The notes under the pieces were generated by a model. It did no database searches. It was not told the origin of the DNA and saw only the letters and a list, made by a program, of their open reading frames with translations. DNA of 64,000 nt from Planctomycetota bacterium. GTDB lineage: Bacteria > Planctomycetota > B15-G4 > SIAN01. Below are positions 39,801 through 52,549 of the stretch, one piece after another (the stretch's first letter is position 1; the number at the start of each line of letters is the position of its first letter). The DNA lies in NCBI GenBank assembly GCA_031409275.1, contig JANNXA010000045.1, positions 1 to 64,000 of the forward strand, in the 5' to 3' direction. Position numbers and translations under genes: made by a program.

Positions 39801-41372
39801 CTACGACTGGTCGAGCGTGTAGCTCACCGCCTCGATGCCCGGACGCCCCGCCATCTGGCTCTGCTCCCACTTGATGAAGTCGGAGCGCACGCCCATGACG
39901 TTGCTGTAGCGGATCGTGTAGTGCGTCCAGTCCTTCGCCATCAGCTCGTCGGACAGCTCGCGCTCGTGCTCCAGCAGCCCCGCCTTGCGCTTGTCCCAGG
40001 TCGCCTTGTCCATCGCCTCGACTTCGCGGACGAGCTCCTGGTAGATCGGTGCGCATGGCCAGTCGGTCCGCGCATTGACCCACCACGTGCACAGCTTCCC
40101 GAGCTTCTCGAGGAAGAGGTCGTGCTCGGGGCTGAAGTTGAGGCAGCTGCCGTCGAAGTAGTTGCCTAGCCCCTTCATCTTCGATTCATCGATCAGCGGC
40201 TTGGCGATGTCGTAGCCGACCGTTCCCTTGAACGGGAAGAAGATGGCCCAGCGGAAGCGGCCGAGCTTCACCTTCGCGCACAGCTCGAACGTGTCGAGGA
40301 TCTCGGCGCGCCCTTCGTGAGGCAGACCGAACATGATGAAGGCGGAGGTGTGCAGGTCGTACTTGTGCGCGTTCGCGAAGCTGTCCTCGATCTGCTGGTT
40401 CGTCATGTAGCGGTGCAGGACGTCGCGGCGGATGCGATCGTTGCCCGACTCGAGCCCGAACTTCACGATCATGCAGCCCGCTTCCTTCAGGTAGCGCGCC
40501 GAGGCGTCATCGAAGCAGTTGACGTGGCCGTTGACGACGAACGGGAGGCCGACGTTCGCTTCCTGGTAGGCCTTGCAGAACTTCTTCACGTACGGCTTGT
40601 TCAGCGTGAAGAGGTCGTCGTCGAAGATGAACGTCTTGATCTGCGGGTAGCGCCCGCGCAGATCCTTCAGCTCGGCGATCTGGCGCTCGATCGGGAAGCT
40701 GCGCAGGAACTCCTTCGGCCCCTTCGCCGCGCCGTCGGCGACGTACTGGTCGACGATCTCGAGGTTGAAGCAATAGGTGCACTTGTAGGGGCAGCCGCGC
40801 GAAGTGAGGATCCCCATCCACCCCTTCGTCGCCGCCAGCACCTTCGGCATGTCGAAGACTTCGTAGTCGAGCGCCGGCAGCGTGTCGAGGCCCGGGAATG
40901 GCGCAACCGGCTTGATCTTCTTCTCGCCGCCGACCCAGCTTCGGATGCCGTTCACCTCGGTCGGGTCGCCGCCCTTCACGAGCGCGTCCATCACGTCGAC
41001 GAGCGCATAGTCGCCCTCGCCGATGCAGACGTAGTCCCACAGCTTCGACTCGTGCACTTCGTCCGGCACCATCGTGCAGTGGACGCCGCCGATGATCTGC
41101 TTCAACTCGGGGAACGCGGCGCGGATCGCCTTGCCCGCCTCGATGCACCAGTCGTACTGCATCGAGAGCGCGGAGAAGCCGATCAGGCCGGGCTTGGTCT
41201 CGCGCACGTAGTCGACGACCTGCGCCATCGTCGGCACCGGCTCGAGCTTCTCGCAAACGTGCCAGAGGTCCATCTCGTGGCCGCGCGACTTCACGACGCC
41301 CGCGAGCGAAGCGATGCCGTGGTTGCTGCCAGCCGGCGCGTCGAGGCTCGGGTAGAGCAGAAGGATCTTCAT
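39801..41372 (-). CDS. Cobalamin-binding radical SAM protein (class B methyltransferase-like)
   Basis: N-terminal B12-binding domain (IGFS, GGVH, GEGD), TSRGCPYKCTYC, FDDDLF, GLESG, MFGLP. Confidence 0.92.
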   Translation of the reverse strand: MKILLLYPSLDAPAGSNHGIASLAGVVKSRGHEMDLWHVCEKLEPVPTMAQVVDYVRETKPGLIGFSALSMQYDWCIEAGKAIRAAFPELKQIIGGVHCTMVPDEVHESKLWDYVCIGEGDYALVDVMDALVKGGDPTEVNGIRSWVGGEKKIKPVAPFPGLDTLPALDYEVFDMPKVLAATKGWMGILTSRGCPYKCTYCFNLEIVDQYVADGAAKGPKEFLRSFPIERQIAELKDLRGRYPQIKTFIFDDDLFTLNKPYVKKFCKAYQEANVGLPFVVNGHVNCFDDASARYLKEAGCMIVKFGLESGNDRIRRDVLHRYMTNQQIEDSFANAHKYDLHTSAFIMFGLPHEGRAEILDTFELCAKVKLGRFRWAIFFPFKGTVGYDIAKPLIDESKMKGLGNYFDGSCLNFSPEHDLFLEKLGKLCTWWVNARTDWPCAPIYQELVREVEAMDKATWDKRKAGLLEHERELSDELMAKDWTHYTIRYSNVMGVRSDFIKWEQSQMAGRPGIEAVSYTLDQS

Positions 41373-41648
41373 CCGGCGTGCGCTCCGGGAACAAGTCAGA
41401 GCAGCGAAGCCCCCGCGAACCAACGCGGCGACGCCTCCGGAAAACGGCTCTCCAGAGGGCTCCTCCCTCGAAACAGGACCAAACTCATACAGATTCGAGC
41501 AGTCGATGCAACGCGCGCATTCGCACGGAGTTGTGGCGGGCGCGGTCGCTTCGGAACCAACTTCTCACCGCGCCCAGGCGTTTCGGCTCCGGATGGAGCG
41601 CCTTGTGACGATTCCTAGGTAGCCACCCCAACGTCGGAGTCCGCCGCC

Positions 41649-42035
41649 ATGCACCCCCCTCGACCCAAGCGAGCCACTCGATCGCGCCGCAGCGGCTTTG
41701 CGCTCGTCGAGTTGATGGTGACTTCGATCGTGCTGATGACCGGATGCGTCGCCCTGGTGCTCTCCACCAGCACCACCGGCCTCGCGACCTTCAAGGCCGA
41801 GCAGGCCAGCGTCACCAAGAACACGCTCGACTGGCTGCTCGAAAGTCTCGCCGACGTGGAGTTCGACGACCTGCTGTCGTGGAACGGGGTCAGCTTCGAC
41901 CGCGGCGACCACACCGCCCGTGTCAACGCAACCACGGTGTCGCTCGGACTGATCAGCCTCGAGATGACGGTCACCGACGACCGCACCGGCAGCGTCCTGG
42001 GGCGCATCGCGACGCTGCGCTCGGGAGGCTACTGA
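41649..42035 (+). CDS. Type IV minor pilin/pseudopilin (PilV-like)
   Basis: Basic leader followed by G|FALVELMV prepilin cleavage motif. Confidence 0.8.
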   Translation: MHPPRPKRATRSRRSGFALVELMVTSIVLMTGCVALVLSTSTTGLATFKAEQASVTKNTLDWLLESLADVEFDDLLSWNGVSFDRGDHTARVNATTVSLGLISLEMTVTDDRTGSVLGRIATLRSGGY

Positions 42036-42036
42036 G

Positions 42037-42624
42037 ATGGCGACCCCACGACGCAAGACGCGCGGCACCACGCTGCTCGAGACCTCGATCACGGCGACGC
42101 TCCTCGTCGGGGTGGTCGGCACCGCGCTCTCCCTGACGCGCGAATCGCAGGGCGTCATGCTCGATTGCATGCGCGCACTCGCCGAGCGGACCGAGTCGAG
42201 CAACGCGTTCGACGAGCTCGCCGAGTCGATCGCGCAGGCGAATGGCGCGACCCTCCAGATCGACACCCGTCCGGTGGACGGCGACCTCCTGCTGCTCCAG
42301 GTGCCGGTCAACCTCGTCGGCAGCGCCGCGACGTGGGGCGCGACCTCTCTCGACCGCGTCACGTCCACGCAATGGGCCGGCGCCTTCGACGAGTACCGGC
42401 TGATCGCGTCGCAGAACCACCGCACGAAGTTCCGCCTCACCCGCCGACCGGTCGACGCGAACGGCCAGCCACTGGCCGCGGCGGTCGACATCGCCGACGG
42501 GATCGATGGCGTCGACTCGGCGGGCCACAAGGGATTCACCGTCTTCCGTGACGCGAGCCTCGTTCGCGTCACCCTGCGCGTCGGACATGCCGTCGACGTC
42601 ACCGTCCGTCTGCGCAATCCGTGA
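42037..42624 (+). CDS. Type IV minor pilin/pseudopilin (PilW-like)
   Basis: RRKTRG|TTLLETSI prepilin motif with E5. Confidence 0.78.
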   Translation: MATPRRKTRGTTLLETSITATLLVGVVGTALSLTRESQGVMLDCMRALAERTESSNAFDELAESIAQANGATLQIDTRPVDGDLLLLQVPVNLVGSAATWGATSLDRVTSTQWAGAFDEYRLIASQNHRTKFRLTRRPVDANGQPLAAAVDIADGIDGVDSAGHKGFTVFRDASLVRVTLRVGHAVDVTVRLRNP

Positions 42625-44546
42625 GAACTCCCATGAACCGCATGCCCATCGCTTCGAACGTCCAAGGAATGCGCACGCGAAGCCGCGAAGCGGGCTCCAC
42701 GCTCGTCGTCGCGCTCGCATCGACCATGCTCGCCGCGGGCATCGCCTACGCCGGCCTGTCGATCGCCACGACCGGCCAGGCCGACTCGGCGCGCCAGGAA
42801 CTCAAGCTGCGCGCGAAGGCGCTGGCCGATGCCGGGGTGCATCGCGCCGTGACCTTCCTGAACCAGACCACGCACCTGAGCCCGTTCGATCCATTCGCCG
42901 CGGTCGACGCGCTCCTGTTCGACGGTGGCGGAGCGCCGATCGACTACGCGCTGGCGGAGGACGAGCCGCTCACCGTCGGCGGTCGCACCTACGGCAGCTA
43001 CTCGGTCCACGCGTCGGCGATCCAGAACGGGCTCGTGCGCGACGTCACCGTGACCGCGACCGGCTACGTCCCGAACCGCCAGGCGGCCCAGTTCCGCAAG
43101 ACCGTGCAGGCGGTCGTGCGACTCGAACAGCGCCCCGCCGAAGTCTTCGACTACAGCTACTTCATCAACAACTGGGGCTGGTTCTACGGCAGCACGATCA
43201 ACGGCTACGGCAACGTGCGCTCGAACGGACAGTTCGACGCCGCCAACTACTCGCCAGGCGTCTTCGGTGCGCCGCGCTACGAGCAGATGGACCTGACCAA
43301 CCCGTCGCTGCCCGACCTCGTCGGCTACCAGGACGACAACCACGACGGCATCGTCGACGGCACCGACGGCGGGATCTTCGCCGGCTGGGACATCAAGGAC
43401 TCGACCCACGTGCGCGGCCTCGGCGGCGACACGGCGAACCAGCACGACTACGTCGCGCAGGTGCCGATGCCCAACTTGAGCGACCTCGCCGTCTACGAGT
43501 CGATGGCGCTGTCCGCGGGCGCAAGCCTGTCGATCAGCGGCGGCGCCGGCTTCCCTGCGACCCCGGTCACCGACGCGGTGCTCGGGGACGGCGTCGGCGA
43601 GAAGCAGAACCTGGTGCTGATCGGCACCGTCGACAAGCCGATCCTGCTGAACGGTCCGGTCGTCGTCCGCGGCGACGTCATCCTGTCGGGCGTGGTGAGC
43701 GGCCAAGGGTCGATCTACGCCGGCGGCAACGTCTACGTCGCGAAGAACATCACCTACCTCGATCCGCCGACGACCTCGAAGCCGGCGACCAACAGCGAAG
43801 CGGACACCGAAGCGTGGATCGCGGCGAATCACTCGAAGGACTTCCTCGGCCTCTTCGCCCGCGAGCATGTCGTCATGGGCGACTACACGAACTGGATCTG
43901 GCGCTACTACGTCAACTGGTGGATGAACGACTCGATGAACGCCAGCGTCGAAGACGCGGGTCTCGACCAGATCCCGGGCACGCGGGCCGGTCGCGACGGG
44001 ATCATGAACACCGCCGACGATGACATCCTCGAAGGCGATGGCGTCTTCACCGTCGACCGCTACACGCAGGCGCACGCGAACCTCGGCCAGATCCCCGCGG
44101 GCAAGAGCGTCGGCGACGTGATCCCCGGCTCGGGCGAGGACATCGATGGCGACGGCAGCTTCGACGCGACCGCAACGCTCTCCGAGTTCGACCTGCCCGC
44201 CGCGCTGAACAGCGGCCAATGGGCCGGCAACGTGCCGCCTGGCACCGCGAACTTCAGCGAGATCTCGACGCTCGAACTCACCGACGTGAACGCCGCGATC
44301 TACACGAACCACGCCGCCGCGATGGTGACGCTGGCCTGGGGACGCGACTTCAACCTGCTCGGCGCAATCGTCTCGCGCAACGAGTCGATGATCTACGGCA
44401 CCAACAGCATGAACCTCACCCACGATCGCCGGCTCACCGCGGGCGGCGCGTACGGCAGTCTGCTGCCGCGCGAAGTCGTCGCGGCGCGAATCCTCACCTG
44501 GCGCACGCTCGAGCAGGACGTGCACTTCCTCGGAGCCACACCGTGA
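42621..44546 (+). CDS. PilX/GspK-like pilin with large Asp-rich C-terminal domain
   Basis: REAG|STLVVAL lacking E5, A.ALADAGV PilX motif, V.ATG, multiple DxDGDG-like loops; GTGA coupling to the upstream gene. Confidence 0.75.
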   Translation: MRTPMNRMPIASNVQGMRTRSREAGSTLVVALASTMLAAGIAYAGLSIATTGQADSARQELKLRAKALADAGVHRAVTFLNQTTHLSPFDPFAAVDALLFDGGGAPIDYALAEDEPLTVGGRTYGSYSVHASAIQNGLVRDVTVTATGYVPNRQAAQFRKTVQAVVRLEQRPAEVFDYSYFINNWGWFYGSTINGYGNVRSNGQFDAANYSPGVFGAPRYEQMDLTNPSLPDLVGYQDDNHDGIVDGTDGGIFAGWDIKDSTHVRGLGGDTANQHDYVAQVPMPNLSDLAVYESMALSAGASLSISGGAGFPATPVTDAVLGDGVGEKQNLVLIGTVDKPILLNGPVVVRGDVILSGVVSGQGSIYAGGNVYVAKNITYLDPPTTSKPATNSEADTEAWIAANHSKDFLGLFAREHVVMGDYTNWIWRYYVNWWMNDSMNASVEDAGLDQIPGTRAGRDGIMNTADDDILEGDGVFTVDRYTQAHANLGQIPAGKSVGDVIPGSGEDIDGDGSFDATATLSEFDLPAALNSGQWAGNVPPGTANFSEISTLELTDVNAAIYTNHAAAMVTLAWGRDFNLLGAIVSRNESMIYGTNSMNLTHDRRLTAGGAYGSLLPREVVAARILTWRTLEQDVHFLGATP

Positions 44547-45061
44547 ACGGGACTGCAACACCGTGGCCACGCGCCGCGCTCGGCGCGTTGCTGGCGCTCG
44601 GCATCGCGCTCCCCGGTGAGGCAGGCGCGCAGAGCTCGGCGCCGTCGACCTCGGGTCGGCCAGCCGAAGCGACGCTGCGACTGCGCGGCAGGAAGCTCGA
44701 CACGCGCGCGAGCCTCTACCCCGGCTCGGCCGATCTCGCCGCGAGCGGCTGGGACCACCGCGATCGCGAGCTGCGTCAGCTCGGCCTCGAGACGGTCGAG
44801 GCGAGCATGCCTGAGATCTTCGACCCGGAAGTGCTGCGAGCCCGGGCGCTCGCACTGCATGGCGGCGCCGAAGTGGAGAGCGCCACCGTGGCGCGCACGC
44901 CGCTCGAGCCGCGCTCGTTCGCGACCGCTTCGGAGCTCGACGCCCCGGCGCCCGCACGATTCGGAGTGGTCACCGGCGGGCTCGTCGCTTTCGCCGGCGC
45001 GCTGCTGCTGCTGGCGGCGCGCCGCAAGCGACGGCTCGCGCGATCGAGCGAGCAACCGTAG
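44543..45061 (+). CDS. Small exported protein with C-terminal TM anchor and basic tail
   Basis: GTG overlaps the upstream TGA; signal peptide ending AGAQ; C-terminus GGLVAFAGALLLLAARRKRR. Confidence 0.65.
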   Translation: MNGTATPWPRAALGALLALGIALPGEAGAQSSAPSTSGRPAEATLRLRGRKLDTRASLYPGSADLAASGWDHRDRELRQLGLETVEASMPEIFDPEVLRARALALHGGAEVESATVARTPLEPRSFATASELDAPAPARFGVVTGGLVAFAGALLLLAARRKRRLARSSEQP

Positions 45062-45069
45062 GAGCCGGC

Positions 45070-45705
45070 TCAGCCGCGGCGCTTCTTCAGCGGCTTTCCG
45101 TCGGCGCTGGTCGGCGGCGCGTCCTTCGCCGTGCCGCCATGCTTCTTGCCTTCGAGCGGCGGGATGCGGCCGTCGGCGAGCGCCTGCGCGAGGTACTCGA
45201 CTTCGCCCTGAATCGTGGTGTCGGCGGTCTTCGGACTCTCCTTGGGATTCAGGCAGAAGAGGTCCCACGCCTCACCCCGCTCGCCATGCTGGCGCACGTT
45301 CCAATCGCCCGACTTCTTGTCGCGCGACAGAGGGAAGAGGACGCAGCGCCACGGCTTGTACTGGAAGCGGTCGCCTTCCTCGGCCCCGACCTTGTGGAGC
45401 ACGCAACCGTCGTTGAAGAAGATGCACCAGCCTTTGCTGACCTTCAGCGTCGGCAGCCCCTCCTTCTCCTGATCGGAGAGCCAGCCGCTCTTCTCCGCCA
45501 GCGCGCGCGCCTCTGGTCGCAGGTGCGGCATGAACTTCGGCAGGTGCTTCGCGATCCGCTGCTGCTCGTGCGGCTCGACCGCCGGTCGGCCGTTCATGCA
45601 GCAGATCCCGCCACACGTCGGATAGACGCAGTCGAAGTGGGCGGTCTTCAGGTTCGCGATCGGCGGCGCCACGGCGAGGGGCACGGCGACTTTCTTCTTG
45701 CTCAC
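45070..45705 (-). CDS. Cys-cluster protein (DUF3109/YkgJ-like, putative Zn or Fe-S binding)
   Basis: FDC...CGGICC, CIFF..GCVLH, KPWRC.LFP; GTGA overlap with the GNAT gene. Confidence 0.75.
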   Translation of the reverse strand: MSKKKVAVPLAVAPPIANLKTAHFDCVYPTCGGICCMNGRPAVEPHEQQRIAKHLPKFMPHLRPEARALAEKSGWLSDQEKEGLPTLKVSKGWCIFFNDGCVLHKVGAEEGDRFQYKPWRCVLFPLSRDKKSGDWNVRQHGERGEAWDLFCLNPKESPKTADTTIQGEVEYLAQALADGRIPPLEGKKHGGTAKDAPPTSADGKPLKKRRG

Positions 45706-46253
45706 GAGCGCTCCTTGCGCGAAATCTCGGGTCCGCGCGCGGGCGACAACGGCCGTCCATCGACGCGGCGGGCGTAGACGACCTTGTCGTCGCCGAGGCG
45801 GTAGTAGTCGGGGATGCGAGCGATCTCGACGTAGTTCGCCCGTTCATAGAAGCGGCGCGTCGGCAGATAGGACTCCTTGCCGCCCGTTTCGATGAGGATC
45901 ATGCGACCGCCGGCAACCCGCACGGCATCTTCGGCCGCGCGCAACAGCTGTTGACCGATGCCAACCCCGTGCAGCGTCGGATCGACGGCGATCCAGTAGA
46001 GATCGAAGATGCCGTCGGTGAGCGGCGTGAGGCCCCAGCACACGTAGCCGACCGCACGCGCCGCATCGCGTTCGCCAAGTTCGGCGACGCGGAAGCAATA
46101 GTCGTCGGGAAGCGCGGCGGCACCCGATCGCGCCTTGGCGATCCCCTCGTCGATCAGCTCCATCGCGACCGCCAGCTCGTTGTCGGGGAACGAACCGGTG
46201 GCGCGCAGGATCGCTTCGAGCGGCGCGCGATCGCTGGAATGCAGCTCACGCAA
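45702..46253 (-). CDS. GNAT N-acetyltransferase
   Basis: GYVCWG, DLYWIAVDP..HG.GIG..LL, TRRFYER..Y, YY..GDD. Start is TTG 46253 or ATG 46301. Confidence 0.88.
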   Translation of the reverse strand: MRELHSSDRAPLEAILRATGSFPDNELAVAMELIDEGIAKARSGAAALPDDYCFRVAELGERDAARAVGYVCWGLTPLTDGIFDLYWIAVDPTLHGVGIGQQLLRAAEDAVRVAGGRMILIETGGKESYLPTRRFYERANYVEIARIPDYYRLGDDKVVYARRVDGRPLSPARGPEISRKERS

Positions 46254-47271
46254 CCGGACCGGGCCGGGCAAGCGCGAGGAGGCGGGCGACGAGCTGCTCA
46301 TAGGTAGCCCCGGTGCGACCCCACGCGCGGGCGAAGCCGGCGTCGGGCGATAGGTCGGGATTGGGATTCGCTTCGAGGACGATCGGCGCGTCGGAGCCGT
46401 CGAGCCGCAAATCGATGCGGCCGTAACCCGTGAGCGACAGCGCATGCCACGCCGCGAGCGCGGCGCCCTGCACCCGCGCCGCGACCGCGGGCGCAAGCAC
46501 GGCGTCGACGACGTTCGTGCCGTTCCAGTCGGGGCTGCCCTCGACCCACTTCGACTCGAAGGTGACCAGGCGCGGCCGTCCGGATGGGAACTTGGCGAAG
46601 TCGATCTCGGCCACCGGCAGCACTTGCGGCGCGTCGGCCGTCCCGACCAGCGCGACGTTCAGCTCGCGACCGGCGACGAAGCGCTCGACGAGGGCGGGCT
46701 GCCGATAGGTCTCGACGACGTAGCGCGCACGCGCGCGCGCCGCTGCGACGTCGTCGACCACGCTCGCCGCGGTGATGCCGTGGCTCGCATCTTCGCGCGC
46801 CGGCTTCACGATCCACGGGAACGGCGCACGCGCCGCCAGCGCCGCCAGCAACGCATCGTCGCGAGGATCGCCGCGCTCGAACACGACCCCGTCGGCGACC
46901 GGAACGCCGCCCGCCGCGAGCAACGCCTTCGCCAGTGGCTTGCGCAAACTGAGCGCGCACGCAAGCGAGCGATTCCCGGTGAACGGCAACCCGGTCAGTT
47001 CGAGCAGCGCGGCGACCGCCGGTTCGAGCGCCGCGTCGCCGCGGTAGGACTCGACGAGATTGAAGACGACGTCGGGATGCGCGCGCTGCAGCGCGGCCAG
47101 CAAATCGGCCGGCTGATCGGGCGCCGGTTGCAGCCGCGCTTCGTGGCCCAGCGTGGCGAGCGCCGCCGCGACGGCTCGCGCACAGCTCTGCACGGAGACG
47201 ACCGCGAGCGCATCCTGAGCGGATCCGTGGGCGAGCGCCTCCTCGGCGTTGTGCAGCACGACGACACGCAT
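46246..47271 (-). CDS. D-Ala-D-Ala ligase-like ATP-grasp protein B
   Basis: VFNLVE, IVKPAREDASHGI, ERFVAGRE, YGRIDLR, LEANPNPD. Confidence 0.88.
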   Translation of the reverse strand: MRVVVLHNAEEALAHGSAQDALAVVSVQSCARAVAAALATLGHEARLQPAPDQPADLLAALQRAHPDVVFNLVESYRGDAALEPAVAALLELTGLPFTGNRSLACALSLRKPLAKALLAAGGVPVADGVVFERGDPRDDALLAALAARAPFPWIVKPAREDASHGITAASVVDDVAAARARARYVVETYRQPALVERFVAGRELNVALVGTADAPQVLPVAEIDFAKFPSGRPRLVTFESKWVEGSPDWNGTNVVDAVLAPAVAARVQGAALAAWHALSLTGYGRIDLRLDGSDAPIVLEANPNPDLSPDAGFARAWGRTGATYEQLVARLLALARPGPVA

Positions 47272-47279
47272 CGCGGCGA

Positions 47280-48272
47280 TCAGCTCCGCGGCAGGCGGGA
47301 GAGCGCCTGGTCGAGGATGCGACCGATCAACCCGTCATGGTCGAGGCCGACGCGCTCCGACATCACGCAGAGGTCGCTCCAACCCGGGTTGACGCCCGGC
47401 AGCGGATTGAGCTCGATGAAACGAGGCACGCCATCGGCTCCGAGCCGCACATCGACGCGACCGACGTCGCGACACTGCAGCGCGCGATAGGCGGCCAGCG
47501 CGGTGCGTTCGACCGCGGCCGTCAGCTCCGGCGCGCGGCGCGGCGGGACGTGGTATTCGACCTGCTCGTCCCAGACGCGCTTCACCTCGACCGAGTAGAC
47601 GAAGTCCGCGGTGACGCCGCCCTTCGGGCAGATCTCCATCGTCGCGAGCACGTGCGCGCGCTCGCCCTGACCGAGGATGCCGACGGTGAACTCCGGCCCG
47701 GTGAGGAACTCCTCGATGAGCGCGGGCTGCTCGTAGCCGGTCAACAGGCGCTCGACTTCACGGCGCAGCGCAGCGTCGTCGTTGCTCTTGCTGGTCTTGC
47801 GCACGCCCATGCTCGAGCCTTCGAACAGCGGCTTGGCGATGCATGGAAACGGCAGTTCGAGAGTCGCGAGCTGCTCGACCGTCGAGACCACCACTCCGCG
47901 CGCGACGGCGACGCCGGCGGCAGCGGCGATGGTCTTGGCCAGCGCCTTGTCGAGGCTGAGCGCGAGCGTCAACGGATCGCTGTGGGTGCAGGGAACGCCG
48001 ACCATCTCGCAGGCGGCCGGCACGTGCGCCTCGCGCGAACGGGTGCCGTGGCCTTCGGCGACGTTGAAGACGAGCTCGGGCGGCCGCTCCAGCAGCGCGG
48101 CGAGGAAGCGCTTGCCGCCGCCCATGCGCCGCGGACGGTGGCCGCGCCGACTCAACGCCGCCTCGATGGCGGCGATCGTGCGATCCGAGTCGTACTCCTC
48201 GAGCCGATCGTCCGGTGCGCCAGCGGCCGCCGTGAAGTCGCTCTTCAGGTCGAATGCGATGCCGATGTCCAC
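47280..48272 (-). CDS. D-Ala-D-Ala ligase-like ATP-grasp protein A
   Basis: EEYDS, VFNVAEG...REA.VP, KPLFEGSSMGV, EEFL.G.EFTVG, GRVDVR, IELNPLPG; GTG start with GAAAGG RBS. Confidence 0.9.
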   Translation of the reverse strand: MDIGIAFDLKSDFTAAAGAPDDRLEEYDSDRTIAAIEAALSRRGHRPRRMGGGKRFLAALLERPPELVFNVAEGHGTRSREAHVPAACEMVGVPCTHSDPLTLALSLDKALAKTIAAAAGVAVARGVVVSTVEQLATLELPFPCIAKPLFEGSSMGVRKTSKSNDDAALRREVERLLTGYEQPALIEEFLTGPEFTVGILGQGERAHVLATMEICPKGGVTADFVYSVEVKRVWDEQVEYHVPPRRAPELTAAVERTALAAYRALQCRDVGRVDVRLGADGVPRFIELNPLPGVNPGWSDLCVMSERVGLDHDGLIGRILDQALSRLPRS

Positions 48273-48301
48273 GACCGCCCTTTCGTCCGCTCGCGCTTCG
48301 T

Positions 48302-49774
48302 TCAGGTCGAGTCGCGACGACTGCGGCCGCGGTGCGCCCACTTGCTCTTGCCGACCACGGTCTCGGTGGCCGGTGGCGCCGGCGCGGCTCCGTCCGCAGC
48401 GCTCGACGCCGACGCTGCGACGACCGGCGCTTTGCTCCGACCGCCGCTCTTCTCGCGACCATGGCTGCCATTGCGGCCGTTGCTCGAATGGCCGTTCTGC
48501 TCGGCCGCGTCGGCCGCCGACACCGCGAGTGCCGGCCGCGCGTGGCTGCTGCTCAGCGCGATCGGACCAGCGGCCGGCGTCGCGTTGGCCGAGGCCACGA
48601 GACGGCGGTGCAGGATCTCCTCCTCCGGCAGCTGCTCGAAGTACTCGAAGATGCGCCCCTGGAAGTTGCGCAGGATCGCGCGCTGCTTCTTCGGGTCGTA
48701 GTGGAGCAGGTAGTTGGGATTGACCGGCACCTTGCCGCCGCCGCCGGGCGCGTCGATGACGTACTGCGGCACGGCGAGTCCGGAGGTGTGGCCGCGCAGC
48801 CCCTCCATGATCTCGAGTCCCTTGGCGATGGTCGTGCGCATGTGTTCGCTGCCGCGCACCGGATCGCAGTGGTACACGTAGTAGGGGCGCACGCGCATCT
48901 TCATCAGGCCGTGCATCAACCCCTTCATGGTCTCGACGCTGTCGTTGACGCCCTTCAGCAGCACCGCCTGGTTGTTCAGCGGGATGCCGGCACGCGAGAG
49001 CATGTCGCACGCGCGCGCCGCTTCGGGCGTGCACTCGCGCGGGTGGTTGAAGTGCACGTTCACCCAGAGCGGGTGGTACTTCTGCAGCATGTCGCACAAC
49101 TCGGCATCGACTCGCTGCGGCAGCGAGACGGGCACGCGGGTGCCGATGCGGATGATCTCGAGATGCGGGATGGCCCGCAGCTTGGAGAGGATCGATTCGA
49201 GCTTGCCGGTCGAGCAGGTGAGCGGGTCGCCACCCGACACGACCACGTCGCGCACGGTCTTGGTCTTCGCGATGTAGTCGACCATGCGGTCGATCTCCAT
49301 CTCCGGCACGGCGTCCTCGTACATGATCCGCTTGCGCGTGCAGTAGCGGCAGTAGACCGCGCACGAGTTGCTGATCACCATCAGCACGCGATCGGGATAG
49401 CGATGCGTGATGCCGGGGACGGGCGAGTAGGCCTCTTCGCCGAGCGGATCCTCGTCGCCGACGTCGCGGTAGGTGTACTCCTCCGCGATCGGCACCGCCT
49501 GCCGCAGGATCGGATCGTCCGGATCGTCGGCATCGATCAGCGCCAGGTAGTACGGCGGGATGCCCATGCGGAAGTCGCGCAGCACCTCGCGGCGCACCTC
49601 GCGCTCGCCTTCGGGGATCGGCAGCAGCTTGATCAGCTGTTCGAGGTCCGTGACGCGATTGCGGAACTGCCACTTCCAGTCGTTCCACTCCGCGTCGGAG
49701 ACGTTCGGGTAGTAGTGGGCGCGACCCGTGCGTCGCGCAGCCACTGCGGCAGCGAGCCCGCTGCTCTGGATCAC
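48302..49774 (-). CDS. kamA: KamA-family radical SAM/PLP enzyme, lysine 2,3-aminomutase-like, with low-complexity C-terminal tail
   Basis: W.DWKWQ, THRYPDRV, CAVYCRYCTR, SGGDPL, HFNHPRE, RPYY..HCD, DAPGGGGK. Confidence 0.9.
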   Translation of the reverse strand: MIQSSGLAAAVAARRTGRAHYYPNVSDAEWNDWKWQFRNRVTDLEQLIKLLPIPEGEREVRREVLRDFRMGIPPYYLALIDADDPDDPILRQAVPIAEEYTYRDVGDEDPLGEEAYSPVPGITHRYPDRVLMVISNSCAVYCRYCTRKRIMYEDAVPEMEIDRMVDYIAKTKTVRDVVVSGGDPLTCSTGKLESILSKLRAIPHLEIIRIGTRVPVSLPQRVDAELCDMLQKYHPLWVNVHFNHPRECTPEAARACDMLSRAGIPLNNQAVLLKGVNDSVETMKGLMHGLMKMRVRPYYVYHCDPVRGSEHMRTTIAKGLEIMEGLRGHTSGLAVPQYVIDAPGGGGKVPVNPNYLLHYDPKKQRAILRNFQGRIFEYFEQLPEEEILHRRLVASANATPAAGPIALSSSHARPALAVSAADAAEQNGHSSNGRNGSHGREKSGGRSKAPVVAASASSAADGAAPAPPATETVVGKSKWAHRGRSRRDST

Positions 49775-50336
49775 CTGGAATCTCCCTGGAATCGCGCGGA
49801 GCGGACGATGCGATGAAGCATCGACTCGCGTGTCAGAGGTGAGCGCGCGACGCCGGCCATGTTGGAACGGCGGATGCAGCGTGACGCGTCGAGACGACGC
49901 GTCGCCATCCGCGACTGCTTCGCGAACGTTGGAATCGGAAGGGGGCGAACCGAGCGCGAGCCGGAACGGATGCGAAGGGGAGCGACGGTCGCGACGAGCG
50001 CGCCGAGCCGACCGCAGCCGGCGACGGCGCGCGTCGTACCTGGAGGTTCGCTCTCGACCGATGCTTCGTCCGCATCGACCCCGAGCGCTCGGATGCGACC
50101 GGCGCTCCGCGAGCCTCGTCCACTCTCCCCGACCACGAGGAGCATCACGTTCGTCCGCGAGGTCTTCCGCAGCGGCCAGCAGCCGCCAAAGCGTTCCCCT
50201 CGATCAACGGCGGGACGTCGCAGTTGCGATTGGCCGACCCGACCCATCGCAAGCTTGTCGAACGAGTCCCGTCCCTCGCCTCGACGGCGACTCGTCGAAC
50301 GAGCGCGCTGGGTCAAGCTCAGGAAGAACGGGCGGA

Positions 50337-50366
50337 ACCATACGGACGTCAGGAGGGGGCTGACAA
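50337..50366 (-). promoter_or_regulatory. Sigma70-type promoter candidate for the kamA operon
   Basis: Minus strand TTGTCA-N18-TATGGT. Confidence 0.45.
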
Positions 50367-50518
50367 GCGGCAAGCCGGCTCCAAGTACAAGGTGTTGAGA
50401 ACCTCGCCGCCACGTTTCGCCGAAAGGGCCGCTTGGATGCGCGCTTGAACGGTGCACCGCCGACGTTGAAGCTCACCTGCGAGCCGGACCACGCTCCATC
50501 CACGGATCGCCCCACTTC

Positions 50519-52549
50519 ATGAAACCCCTCGCCGCCGCCTGTCGCACCGCCCGTTTCGGAGCCCTCGCGGCGGGCGCCGTGGTCGGAGTCGCCGGCTGGC
50601 AATGGCCGACGCTCTTCGGCTCCGCCGGGGAGCGGCTGGGAACGGGGCTGCTGCTCGTGGTGGTGCCCACCGTCGTCGCCGCGCACGTCGCGCTGCCGCT
50701 GGCCCAGCGCCTCGCGAGCGCGGTCGCCGCCGCGCTCTGGAGCGGCGTGCTGGTCGCCGTCGTGGCGGCGCTCTACCTGCCGACGGTCACCCCGCTCGCC
50801 GTCGCCATCGCTGCCGCCGTCGGCGCGCTCGTGGGTGGACTGATTGGCCGCAGCAACTGGTTCGAGCGGCGCGCCGCCACCGTCGTCGCCGTGGTCGCGC
50901 TGGCGGCCGCCAGCAGCGTCGGCGTCGTGCGCCGCCCCCTGCCAGCCGAACCCGCGTCGCCCCACCCGAACACCTTCGTCTTCGGCCTCGACGCCGGCAC
51001 CTGGACGATCCTCGACGAACTGATGGCGAACGGCGACCTCCCCAACCTGCGCCGACTGCGCGAAGAGGGAGTGAGCGGCACGCTGCGCTCCGAAATCGAG
51101 TCCTCATCGCCGCGCGTCTGGACCACGATCGCCACCGGCAAGACCCCTTCGAAGCACGGTGTCGTCGACTTCTTCTGCACGCAGAACGACAACCTGACGA
51201 CGCGCCGTGTCTGGGAGATCTTGCAGGCGCAGGGCTACAGCGTCGGGTTGTTCCAGTGGCTGGTGACCTGGCCGCCCGACCCCTTCGATCCCTTCGTGGT
51301 GCCCGCATGGATGGCGCGCGGTCCGGAGACGCATCCGGCGGAGCTCTCGTTCATCAAGGAACTCGAGCTCGCGTTCCAGACCGGCGAGTTCGACCAATGG
51401 CGCGCGCAACGCGAATGGCCCACGCTGCTCACGCGACTGCGCGACTGGGGAGTCGGATACCTGCGCCACGGACTGCGCATGCCGACGCTGTGCGCCGCCC
51501 TGTCGCAAGCGTGGACGGCCGCGACGAGTCCGAGCTGGGAACTCCAGTACGGCGCCAAGCGGACGCTTCAGCTGCTGCTGAACGGCGACGTCTACCGTGA
51601 GCTCTACCGCCGCCACCAGCCCGACTTCTCCGCCTTCATCTGCTACGGGACCGACAACCTCGCCCACAAGTTCTGGCAGTACCACTACCCCGACGACTTC
51701 GCGATCCCGCACGGCGCCGCCGCCCCCTTCGCCAACCTGCTGACCGACTACTACCGCGCCGCCGATGCGCTGCTCGGCGAGGTGCTCGCGCTGCTGCCCG
51801 CGGACACGACGGTGGCCGTCGTCTCCGACCACGGCTTCACGTCGATCGGCGAAGGCGGCGAGTCGCACCAACGGGAGCTGCGTCCGAAGATGAGCCGGCT
51901 CGCCTCGCTGCTCGAGCTGACCGAACGCGACGTCCTCTGGTCGGCCGTCGCGACTCGCGGCTACTTCCGGCCCGTCGCAGGCGCCATCGGCGCCGACGCT
52001 GCCGCACGGAGGATCCTCGACTTCCTCGGCGGCTGCGAGGTCGTCGGCGGTCCGAAGCTCTTCGTGCCGAAGGTGCTCGACTCCGGCCAGATCGAGGTCG
52101 CGATCAACCTCGACGTGAAGTTCGAGCGCGACACCGAATTCGCCACGCCGAAAGGGCCGATGCTCCTCACCGACCTCGTCGACGTCGAGGATCGCACCGG
52201 CAACCACTCGATCGACGGGATCGTGCTGTTGCGCGGTCCGGCGTTTCGCCGCGGCGCGCGGATCGAGACCGCTCACCTCGCCGATGTGACGCCGACGCTG
52301 CTCCACTTGAATGGGTTCGCCGTCGGCGCCGACATGGACGGCCGCGTGCTCGAAGAGGCGTTCACCGATGCGTTCCGTGAAGAGCACTCGATCGAGCGCA
52401 TCGAGAGCTGGGACGATCTCGTGAATGTCACGCGCGCAGCGGCCGGACCAGGCGACGAGCGCGGGTGGCGCAAGTACGCCAGCGAACTCGGCTATGTCGA
52501 TGGCGGCGACAAGGCGACGCCCGCCGGAGCACCGAAGGAGCGGGAGTAG
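50519..52549 (+). CDS. Membrane-anchored alkaline phosphatase superfamily protein (type I phosphodiesterase/NPP-like)
   Basis: About 5 N-terminal TM helices; FGLDAGTW, SPRVWTTIATG...HG, D..AHKFW, VSDHGF, H..DGI, DVTPT, LGY. Confidence 0.88.
   Translation: MKPLAAACRTARFGALAAGAVVGVAGWQWPTLFGSAGERLGTGLLLVVVPTVVAAHVALPLAQRLASAVAAALWSGVLVAVVAALYLPTVTPLAVAIAAAVGALVGGLIGRSNWFERRAATVVAVVALAAASSVGVVRRPLPAEPASPHPNTFVFGLDAGTWTILDELMANGDLPNLRRLREEGVSGTLRSEIESSSPRVWTTIATGKTPSKHGVVDFFCTQNDNLTTRRVWEILQAQGYSVGLFQWLVTWPPDPFDPFVVPAWMARGPETHPAELSFIKELELAFQTGEFDQWRAQREWPTLLTRLRDWGVGYLRHGLRMPTLCAALSQAWTAATSPSWELQYGAKRTLQLLLNGDVYRELYRRHQPDFSAFICYGTDNLAHKFWQYHYPDDFAIPHGAAAPFANLLTDYYRAADALLGEVLALLPADTTVAVVSDHGFTSIGEGGESHQRELRPKMSRLASLLELTERDVLWSAVATRGYFRPVAGAIGADAAARRILDFLGGCEVVGGPKLFVPKVLDSGQIEVAINLDVKFERDTEFATPKGPMLLTDLVDVEDRTGNHSIDGIVLLRGPAFRRGARIETAHLADVTPTLLHLNGFAVGADMDGRVLEEAFTDAFREEHSIERIESWDDLVNVTRAAAGPGDERGWRKYASELGYVDGGDKATPAGAPKERE

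Follow-up and report, generated by a model that had tools for sequence, protein, structure and literature searches.

N-epsilon-acetyl-beta-lysine is made by the AblA/AblB pair of methanogens and Pelobacter carbinolicus (Pcar_1401/1402), a lysine 2,3-aminomutase and a GNAT-family acetyltransferase that share one operon and a salt-related phenotype; the kamA-yodP genes of Bacillus encode an AblA/AblB-type pathway. Beta-lysine is also a building block of viomycin and streptothricin, which are assembled by non-ribosomal peptide synthetases (NRPS), while free-standing ATP-grasp ligases serve NRPS-independent peptide pathways and those of acetylated dipeptide solutes such as N-acetylglutaminylglutamine amide (NAGGN), in which charge is masked by acetylation. 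Here we describe a locus with likenesses to all of these, found in a window of 64,000 nucleotides (the whole stretch analysed, positions 1 to 64,000 of contig JANNXA010000045.1, assembly GCA_031409275.1, from a Planctomycetota bacterium), where genes for a KamA aminomutase, two Ddl-fold ATP-grasp ligases (LigA and LigB) and a GNAT follow one another on the minus strand. The cassette kamA-LigA-LigB-GNAT is a conserved unit with copies in diverse bacteria, and we propose, with about even credence, that its four core genes build a cationic, polyamine-like beta-lysyl amide capped by acetylation. The locus comprises the following features:

kamA: 48302-49774, minus strand, 490 amino acids; Pfam LAM_C and Radical_SAM
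LigA: 47280-48272, minus strand, 330 amino acids; Pfam Dala_Dala_lig_C (PF07478); class A Ddl-fold ATP-grasp ligase
LigB: 46246-47271, minus strand, 341 amino acids; Pfam Dala_Dala_lig_C; class B Ddl-fold ATP-grasp ligase
GNAT: 45702-46253, minus strand, 183 amino acids; Pfam GNAT; N-acetyltransferase of the 2R7H (Dde_3044) subfamily
DUF3109: 45070-45705, minus strand, 211 amino acids; Pfam PF11307 (E 6.4e-13), Atlas 0.94; Rv0495c/YkgJ-like cysteine-cluster protein
KamA C-terminal short motif: 48326-48358, minus strand; sits after a low-complexity linker

An earlier note, made from the sequence alone, had described five tightly packed or overlapping minus-strand genes, with which the open reading frames (ORFs), the gaps from kamA through LigA, LigB and GNAT to DUF3109 (29, 8, -8 and -4 nt) and the Pfam assignments all agree. 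GC content at third codon positions is 0.82-0.91 across the five ORFs, the TTG start of the GNAT gene is one picked among candidate starts, and the closest named relatives are metagenome-assembled genomes of Planctomycetota.

Compared with AblA/AblB, the cassette has a GNAT of a different, shorter subfamily and two ATP-grasp ligases in its core, and in Desulfovibrio (Oleidesulfovibrio) alaskensis G20, where Dde_3041-3044 show the same four annotations, order and strand and no DUF3109, pooled mutant assays show harm in salt from loss of the GNAT but none from loss of kamA. The ligases share the fold and the ATP/Mg and catalytic residues of the Ddl and Van enzymes, but are two divergent paralogues with rebuilt D-Ala pockets, non-essential in G20 and accompanied by a housekeeping Ddl elsewhere in the planctomycete genome. 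Unlike the NRPS of viomycin and streptothricin, the cassette has no carrier protein or adenylation domain. There is a further likeness to the cycling of polyamines by acetyltransferases and acetylpolyamine amidohydrolases (APAH), in that members of this GNAT subfamily in other bacteria are joined to an APAH-like deacetylase within one protein, or have a gene for one behind their cassette; here, however, the acetyltransferase is tied to a biosynthetic cassette, and the deacetylase was not found in this genome. By analogy, the cassette would work like a hybrid of AblA/AblB and an ATP-grasp dipeptide pathway. Direct membership of the AblA/AblB, Ddl/Van and EpmB groups was considered and failed on the features tested (TIGR03827 for the first, scores and pocket residues for the second, EpmB 266 bits against a cut-off of 369 for the third).

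Our literature search returned no paper describing the cassette and no Ddl-type ligase that uses beta-lysine, although the amidoligase survey of Iyer et al. (2009) or the supplement of PMC5987646 may already note the neighbourhood; in its main text, PMC5987646 mentions an MXAN_4097-like Ddl as 'type 3' and has LAM among its abbreviations. The cassette is 'uncharacterised', not 'never noticed'.

Conservation of the cassette

Loci were picked on LigA (18 from GTDB and 80 from metagenomes, minus two duplicates), and denominators count those with enough flank. The kamA gene lies directly upstream of LigA in 53 of 73 loci, LigB is downstream in 53 of 81 and GNAT in 41 of 65, and the complete order kamA-LigA-LigB-GNAT recurs in 32 of the 51 long-enough loci. 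To avoid circularity, 151 evenly drawn Planctomycetota genomes were searched separately. GNAT profile matches were found in 24 of these, LigA in 27 and lysine 2,3-aminomutase (LAM)-like KamA in 28, and the three occurred together in 20 genomes from 17 families, with 0.8 expected if they were independent; two genomes (G134 and G165) hold all three genes unlinked. Searched in reverse, starting from the GNAT, a ligase lies within 1.5 kb in 17 of the 23 other GNAT-bearing genomes. Roughly one in eight of the Planctomycetota sampled has the cassette, and a plasmid search returned one weak stand-alone match and no cassette. The earlier note had mentioned similar neighbourhoods in other bacteria, and its own caveat that the gene order might not be conserved falls away.

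Among the locus variants, LigA occurs without LigB in L031 and L032 and fused to it in L120, and there is a split type without nearby GNAT. In the split type (L091, L093, L097, L099, L101, L108, L110 and L111), LigA is followed by response-regulator genes and then by kamA-LigB, and no GNAT occurs in the fetched flanks. Clustering of neighbouring genes revealed no additional conserved gene besides synteny among kin.

The cysteine-cluster gene, previously counted as part of the operon, is accessory and not core. DUF3109 occurs in 10 of 58 LigA-selected loci, and its subfamily in 5 of the 151 Planctomycetota genomes, all five with the cassette and four with the gene directly after GNAT. Two proteins (P0127 and P0149) carry a weak cysteine-rich YkgJ-like CxxCxxCC domain, below the Pfam cut-off, N-terminal to this GNAT subfamily, hinting that cysteine-cluster proteins may have been recruited to it repeatedly. 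The DUF3109 structure model (pLDDT, the predicted local distance difference test, of 72; built from 10 sequences) gave no VIA match.

The aminomutase KamA

KamA aligns with the Clostridium lysine 2,3-aminomutase 2A5H (E 2.4e-138) and carries CxxxCxxC (C138/C142/C145), R147, HCD (D304) and IDAPGGGGK (D341, K348), so that the cysteine motif, the pyridoxal phosphate (PLP) lysine and both Asp residues named in the earlier note are all in place. R147, D304, D341 and K348 are the equivalents of Clostridium R134, D293, D330 and K337, with presumed roles in binding substrate and PLP; the four are invariant in 61 of 61 cassette-linked KamAs, a count that lists apart the second KamA of this genome and one divergent neighbour. 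Among six aminomutase models, the lysine model TIGR03820 scores best (486 bits, cut-off 525), its match stopping at profile position 361 of 417, followed by those for glutamate (453, cut-off 650), arginine (399, cut-off 600) and EpmB (266, cut-off 369). The lysine model is also the top scorer for all six cassette-linked KamAs scanned. KamA is a PLP/radical-SAM enzyme of the lysine 2,3-aminomutase type and the probable source of beta-lysine. The short C-terminal motif is found in 12 of 63 KamA rows, all of this planctomycete group, and, standing after a long low-complexity linker, is possibly an oligomerisation or docking element.

Elsewhere in the genome a second KamA (C14:169087-170322, locus L040) keeps the D/D/K residues and scores below all specific cut-offs (EpmB 211 against 369); it is not near efp or epmA. 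These two genes map to contigs C40 and C20, respectively, so that the absence of an elongation factor P (EF-P)/EpmA context, as previously claimed, applies to the locus, with no tblastn of the window itself for either gene, and not to the genome, where both are present. AblB (TIGR03827) was not found in a search of the genome in which the positive control was recovered, and kamD (lysine 5,6-aminomutase) gave no match in this 93% complete genome, in a search whose control remained silent.

The two Ddl-like ligases

LigA and LigB are 35% identical to each other and score 116 and 115 bits against TIGR01205 (Ddl; cut-off 246), both falling far under all Ddl and Van cut-offs. Nevertheless, both keep the Ddl ATP/Mg and catalytic set (equivalents of K97, K144, E180, K215, R255, D257, E270 and N272). 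These residues are invariant in 59 of 59 LigA rows and present in 49-50 of 50 LigB rows, with the R255, D257 and N272 equivalents in 50 of 50; at the E270 equivalent LigB has E in 40 rows and D in 10. The substrate-facing positions differ. Invariant in all 59 LigA rows are E26 and D28 (an acidic N-terminal motif), E73 (Ddl H63), R80, E81 and D300 (Ddl L282, in the acceptor pocket). LigB lacks the invariant N-terminal acids and has E74 (48 of 50), D161 in the phosphate loop (46 of 50), W242 at Ddl Y216 (50 of 50), D306 at Ddl G276 (39 of 50), G312 at Ddl L282 (47 of 50) and an EDAS loop. The D-Ala pocket H63/Y216/L282 thereby becomes E/R/D in LigA and E/W/G in LigB. By score and pocket the ligases are not canonical Ddl enzymes, which speaks against the possibility, raised earlier, that they make only D-Ala-D-Ala. 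LigA is predicted to be an amide ligase for amine-rich substrates; we infer that it would accept these on both sides, and LigB a larger one. The closest solved relatives of both are all dipeptide-forming Ddl/Van enzymes.

A canonical-type Ddl is encoded separately on contig C22 (244 bits, over the PRK01372 cut-off and slightly below that of TIGR01205). In the ligase tree a supported branch parts class A from class B, and neither class forms one clean group; the genome's own Ddl is a long branch and two rows are mis-trimmed, so the tree was not used for ancestry.

Several other Ddl-like ligases were encountered. Related genomes hold a further group (L015-L020) on its own supported branch, with no cassette genes in 1.5-kb flanks. 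Stand-alone class A ligases without kamA or GNAT occur on IMG/VR viral contigs (L121:6672-7694, L122:703-1713 and L124:7998-9011), those of L121 and L122 adjoining genes that resemble large-phage structural genes. Double ATP-grasp proteins with two class A-like halves and no kamA were seen at L087:4012-6159 and L089:1295-3448, the latter followed by a gene that we take to resemble a DmpA-type peptidase.

The acetyltransferase and a linked deacetylase

The GNAT profile matches 2R7H with an E-value of 7.5e-54 (runner-up structure only 6.6e-7), and the GNAT model (pLDDT 94) superimposes on 2R7H with Z 23.8 (next 18.7) and a root-mean-square deviation of 1.4 over 155 residues at 41% identity. 2R7H is Dde_3044 of D. 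alaskensis G20, the orthologue of the window GNAT, and is labelled 'putative D-alanine N-acetyltransferase'; the next structural neighbours are RimI/Ard1 protein N-acetylases. Neither the GNAT nor its 35 relatives match the AblB model TIGR03827.

Among 113 long GNAT homologues, 72 are LigB-GNAT fusions, 38 have the architecture GNAT'-deacetylase-GNAT, 3 are of other types, two of these with a weak CxxCxxCC domain, and none is a LigA fusion; the seed alignment behind these counts held fused members, a possible bias. The best matches of the fused deacetylase are acetylpolyamine amidohydrolases (E 5e-75 to 4e-63), with other enzymes of the histone deacetylase (HDAC) fold ranking lower, and its catalytic residues are invariant in 35 of 35. 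In 3 of 54 loci (L037, L042 and L065) a stand-alone deacetylase gene comes after the cassette, and L011 has a fragment of one; the link was found via the fusions and not via neighbour clustering. In the planctomycete genome itself only a 27% generic match to the APAH-like deacetylase was present. The GNAT is likely the final, charge-neutralising step, and the earlier view of it as a tailoring or self-protection enzyme gains support.

Mutant fitness in D. alaskensis G20

The annotations of Dde_3041-3044, which share one strand, read lysine 2,3-aminomutase, ligase, ligase and GNAT (PMC8836040, PMC4045070). All four genes are classed 'Dispensable' in Dataset S2 of PMC4045070, and copper at 15 uM lowers the expression of each (Table S3 of PMC8836040). 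Fitness values were taken from DataSheet2 of PMC4215793, with two of the three kamA rows and every row for the ligases (2 and 4) and for GNAT (3 rows from 2 strains), and in that source only values beyond 1 are called highly reproducible. In two experiments with 800 mM NaCl in defined medium the GNAT mutants scored -0.57, -0.77 and -0.97, and -1.00, -1.63 and -1.29. At pH 6.0 they scored -0.73 to -1.01, compared with -0.27 to +0.05 at pH 8.5-9.5, and defects were milder in selenate, peroxide and carbonyl cyanide 4-(trifluoromethoxy)phenylhydrazone (PMC4215793). Central insertions in kamA and the ligases gave +0.12 to -0.35 in salt and +0.07 to -0.40 at pH 6.0 (PMC4215793), with the kamA strains at +0.09 to -0.35 in 800 mM NaCl, in a pooled assay in which an effect might be hidden by a paralogue or by cross-feeding. 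Of the four genes, it is GNAT alone whose mutants lose fitness in 800 mM NaCl and acid.

In the same data sheet, a ligB insertion at the 3' edge, 12 nt before the annotated GNAT start, scored -0.39 and -0.50 in salt and correlated with the GNAT profile (r 0.71), while an insertion in the middle of ligB with the same orientation scored -0.07 and -0.03. The gene downstream of the G20 GNAT is convergent and shows no consistent defect. Phosphate limitation gave no clear phenotype in G20, and the supplements of a study on pressure do not list the four genes. The G20 pattern fits a harmful unacetylated ligase product.

Proposed pathway

In the pathway that we favour, KamA would first turn L-lysine into beta-lysine, as its conserved active-site residues suggest. 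LigA, with ATP, would then couple the carboxyl group of beta-lysine to an amine acceptor held in the acidic pocket, which might be a second beta-lysine, lysine or a diamine, and LigB, with its larger open pocket, would extend the product by one more unit. Finally, the GNAT would N-acetylate the product, the unacetylated form of which would be harmful in salt or acid stress, as the G20 genetics suggest. In some lineages an acetylpolyamine-amidohydrolase-like enzyme would undo the acetylation. The earlier note had proposed that beta-lysine is ligated by two ATP-grasp enzymes and then acetylated: a conserved NRPS-independent unit, with probable ligation and acetylation, stands, and its list of products (small peptide, osmolyte, polymer, or protein or cell-wall modification) is narrowed, with cell-wall and essential-osmolyte roles disfavoured because of the G20 mutant data.

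More tentatively, and with some doubt, these genes may represent an undescribed polycation class, a polyamine-like beta-lysyl amide made by two Ddl-derived ligases, whose charge many environmental bacteria would switch under salt and acid stress by means of a dedicated acetylase/deacetylase pair (one polypeptide in some species). The GNAT subfamily comprises 915 clusters at 50% identity (E below 1e-30), and the cassette genes are routinely annotated as D-Ala-D-Ala ligases, so that knowing the product would correct many annotations. It would also add a widespread metabolite, assign a function to 2R7H, an orphan of structural genomics, and provide ligases accepting beta-amino acids. The question is testable at once, because each of the four genes is represented among the archived transposon mutants of G20.

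Several observations weigh against the beta-lysyl amide pathway. KamA stays under the TIGR03820 equivalog cut-off (486 against 525). The substrates of the ligases are read from residues mapped onto Ddl structures purely by sequence alignment, and the roles of the DdlB and KamA residues are ones that we presume. The complete order is missing from 19 of the 51 full-length loci, some having LigA without LigB or without a nearby GNAT, 2 of the 24 GNAT genomes have no LigA match, and in both the locus and the co-occurrence counts kin are not independent. The deacetylase adjoins just 3 of 54 loci, and the search of this genome did not recover it. The ligases of G20 were equated with LigA and LigB from annotation and order and not from sequence, and the G20 effects are modest and pooled, coming from two GNAT strains and one edge strain. 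A defect confined to GNAT also fits a build-up of free beta-lysine or a GNAT with other targets.

Alternative explanations

It is unlikely, though it has several points in its favour, that acetylation comes first, with the GNAT as an AblB analogue making N-acetyl-beta-lysine from which the ligases then build a neutral dipeptide-type solute. Such an order would follow the known AblA/AblB logic of a KamA with an acetyltransferase (PMC1224877), the G20 GNAT defect does show up in salt, and a LigB devoid of the invariant N-terminal acids of LigA would suit an acetylated donor. However, the GNAT has no TIGR03827 match, and 800 mM NaCl in defined medium leaves kamA and ligase mutants almost unaffected, whereas deletion of abl stops high-salt growth of M. 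maripaludis (PMC1224877). The ligB insertions are likewise against it, the edge insertion showing a salt defect and the central one none.

We regard as decidedly unlikely a macromolecular mark toggled by the GNAT and the deacetylase, for which the ligases would put beta-lysine on a protein side chain or terminus or on an envelope polymer. ATP-grasp protein ligases exist, the nearest folds to the GNAT past 2R7H are the RimI/Ard1 protein acetylases, and HDAC-fold enzymes can act on proteins. On the other hand, the neighbour clustering brought up no candidate target, no carrier and no lipid or envelope gene common to the loci, the closest solved relatives of the ligases all form dipeptides, and the deacetylase groups with small-molecule acetylpolyamine amidohydrolases.

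That KamA acts on a different basic amino acid or on an already-ligated lysine, so that the product would not derive from free beta-lysine, would explain why all substrate-specific cut-offs are missed (486/525 for lysine, 453/650 for glutamate, 399/600 for arginine), but is very improbable given the lysine-type R/D/D/K set, invariant in 61 of 61, and the lysine model as best in six of six KamAs.

There is little to commend a cell-wall role, with the ligases as alternative D-Ala-D-X dipeptide ligases and the cassette remodelling peptidoglycan. The Ddl fold, the D-alanine ligase annotation and the label of 2R7H all point that way, and PMC5987646 proposes that an unconventional type of Ddl acts in peptidoglycan. 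Yet the scores are far under the Ddl/Van cut-offs, other residues stand at H63, Y216 and L282, the genome has a canonical-type Ddl besides, on C22, all four G20 genes are dispensable and no mur genes recur nearby. Finally, we give almost no credence to KamA being an EpmB for EF-P beta-lysylation amid chance neighbours: epmA and efp are encoded elsewhere in the genome, the second KamA, on C14, misses the EpmB cut-off too (211/369) and a side supply of beta-lysine to EpmA is conceivable, but EpmB scores 266 against 486 for lysine aminomutase, which speaks against the clustering with EpmB that had been raised as an objection, and KamA tracks LigA and GNAT across genomes.

Flanking genes

An Rfam scan of 44500-51000 yielded nothing credible, and in the neighbour clustering neither the B12-binding radical SAM gene, the pilin-like run nor the phosphodiesterase/sulfatase gene that flank the locus accompanies the cassette outside close kin. 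The first of these lies at 39801-41423 of the window on the minus strand, and the pilin-like run occupies 41649-44546 on the plus strand, its last gene encoding a 641-amino-acid protein without a Pfam match. On the other side, divergent from kamA, a gene for a membrane-anchored protein of the phosphodiesterase/sulfatase family spans 50519-52549 on the plus strand.

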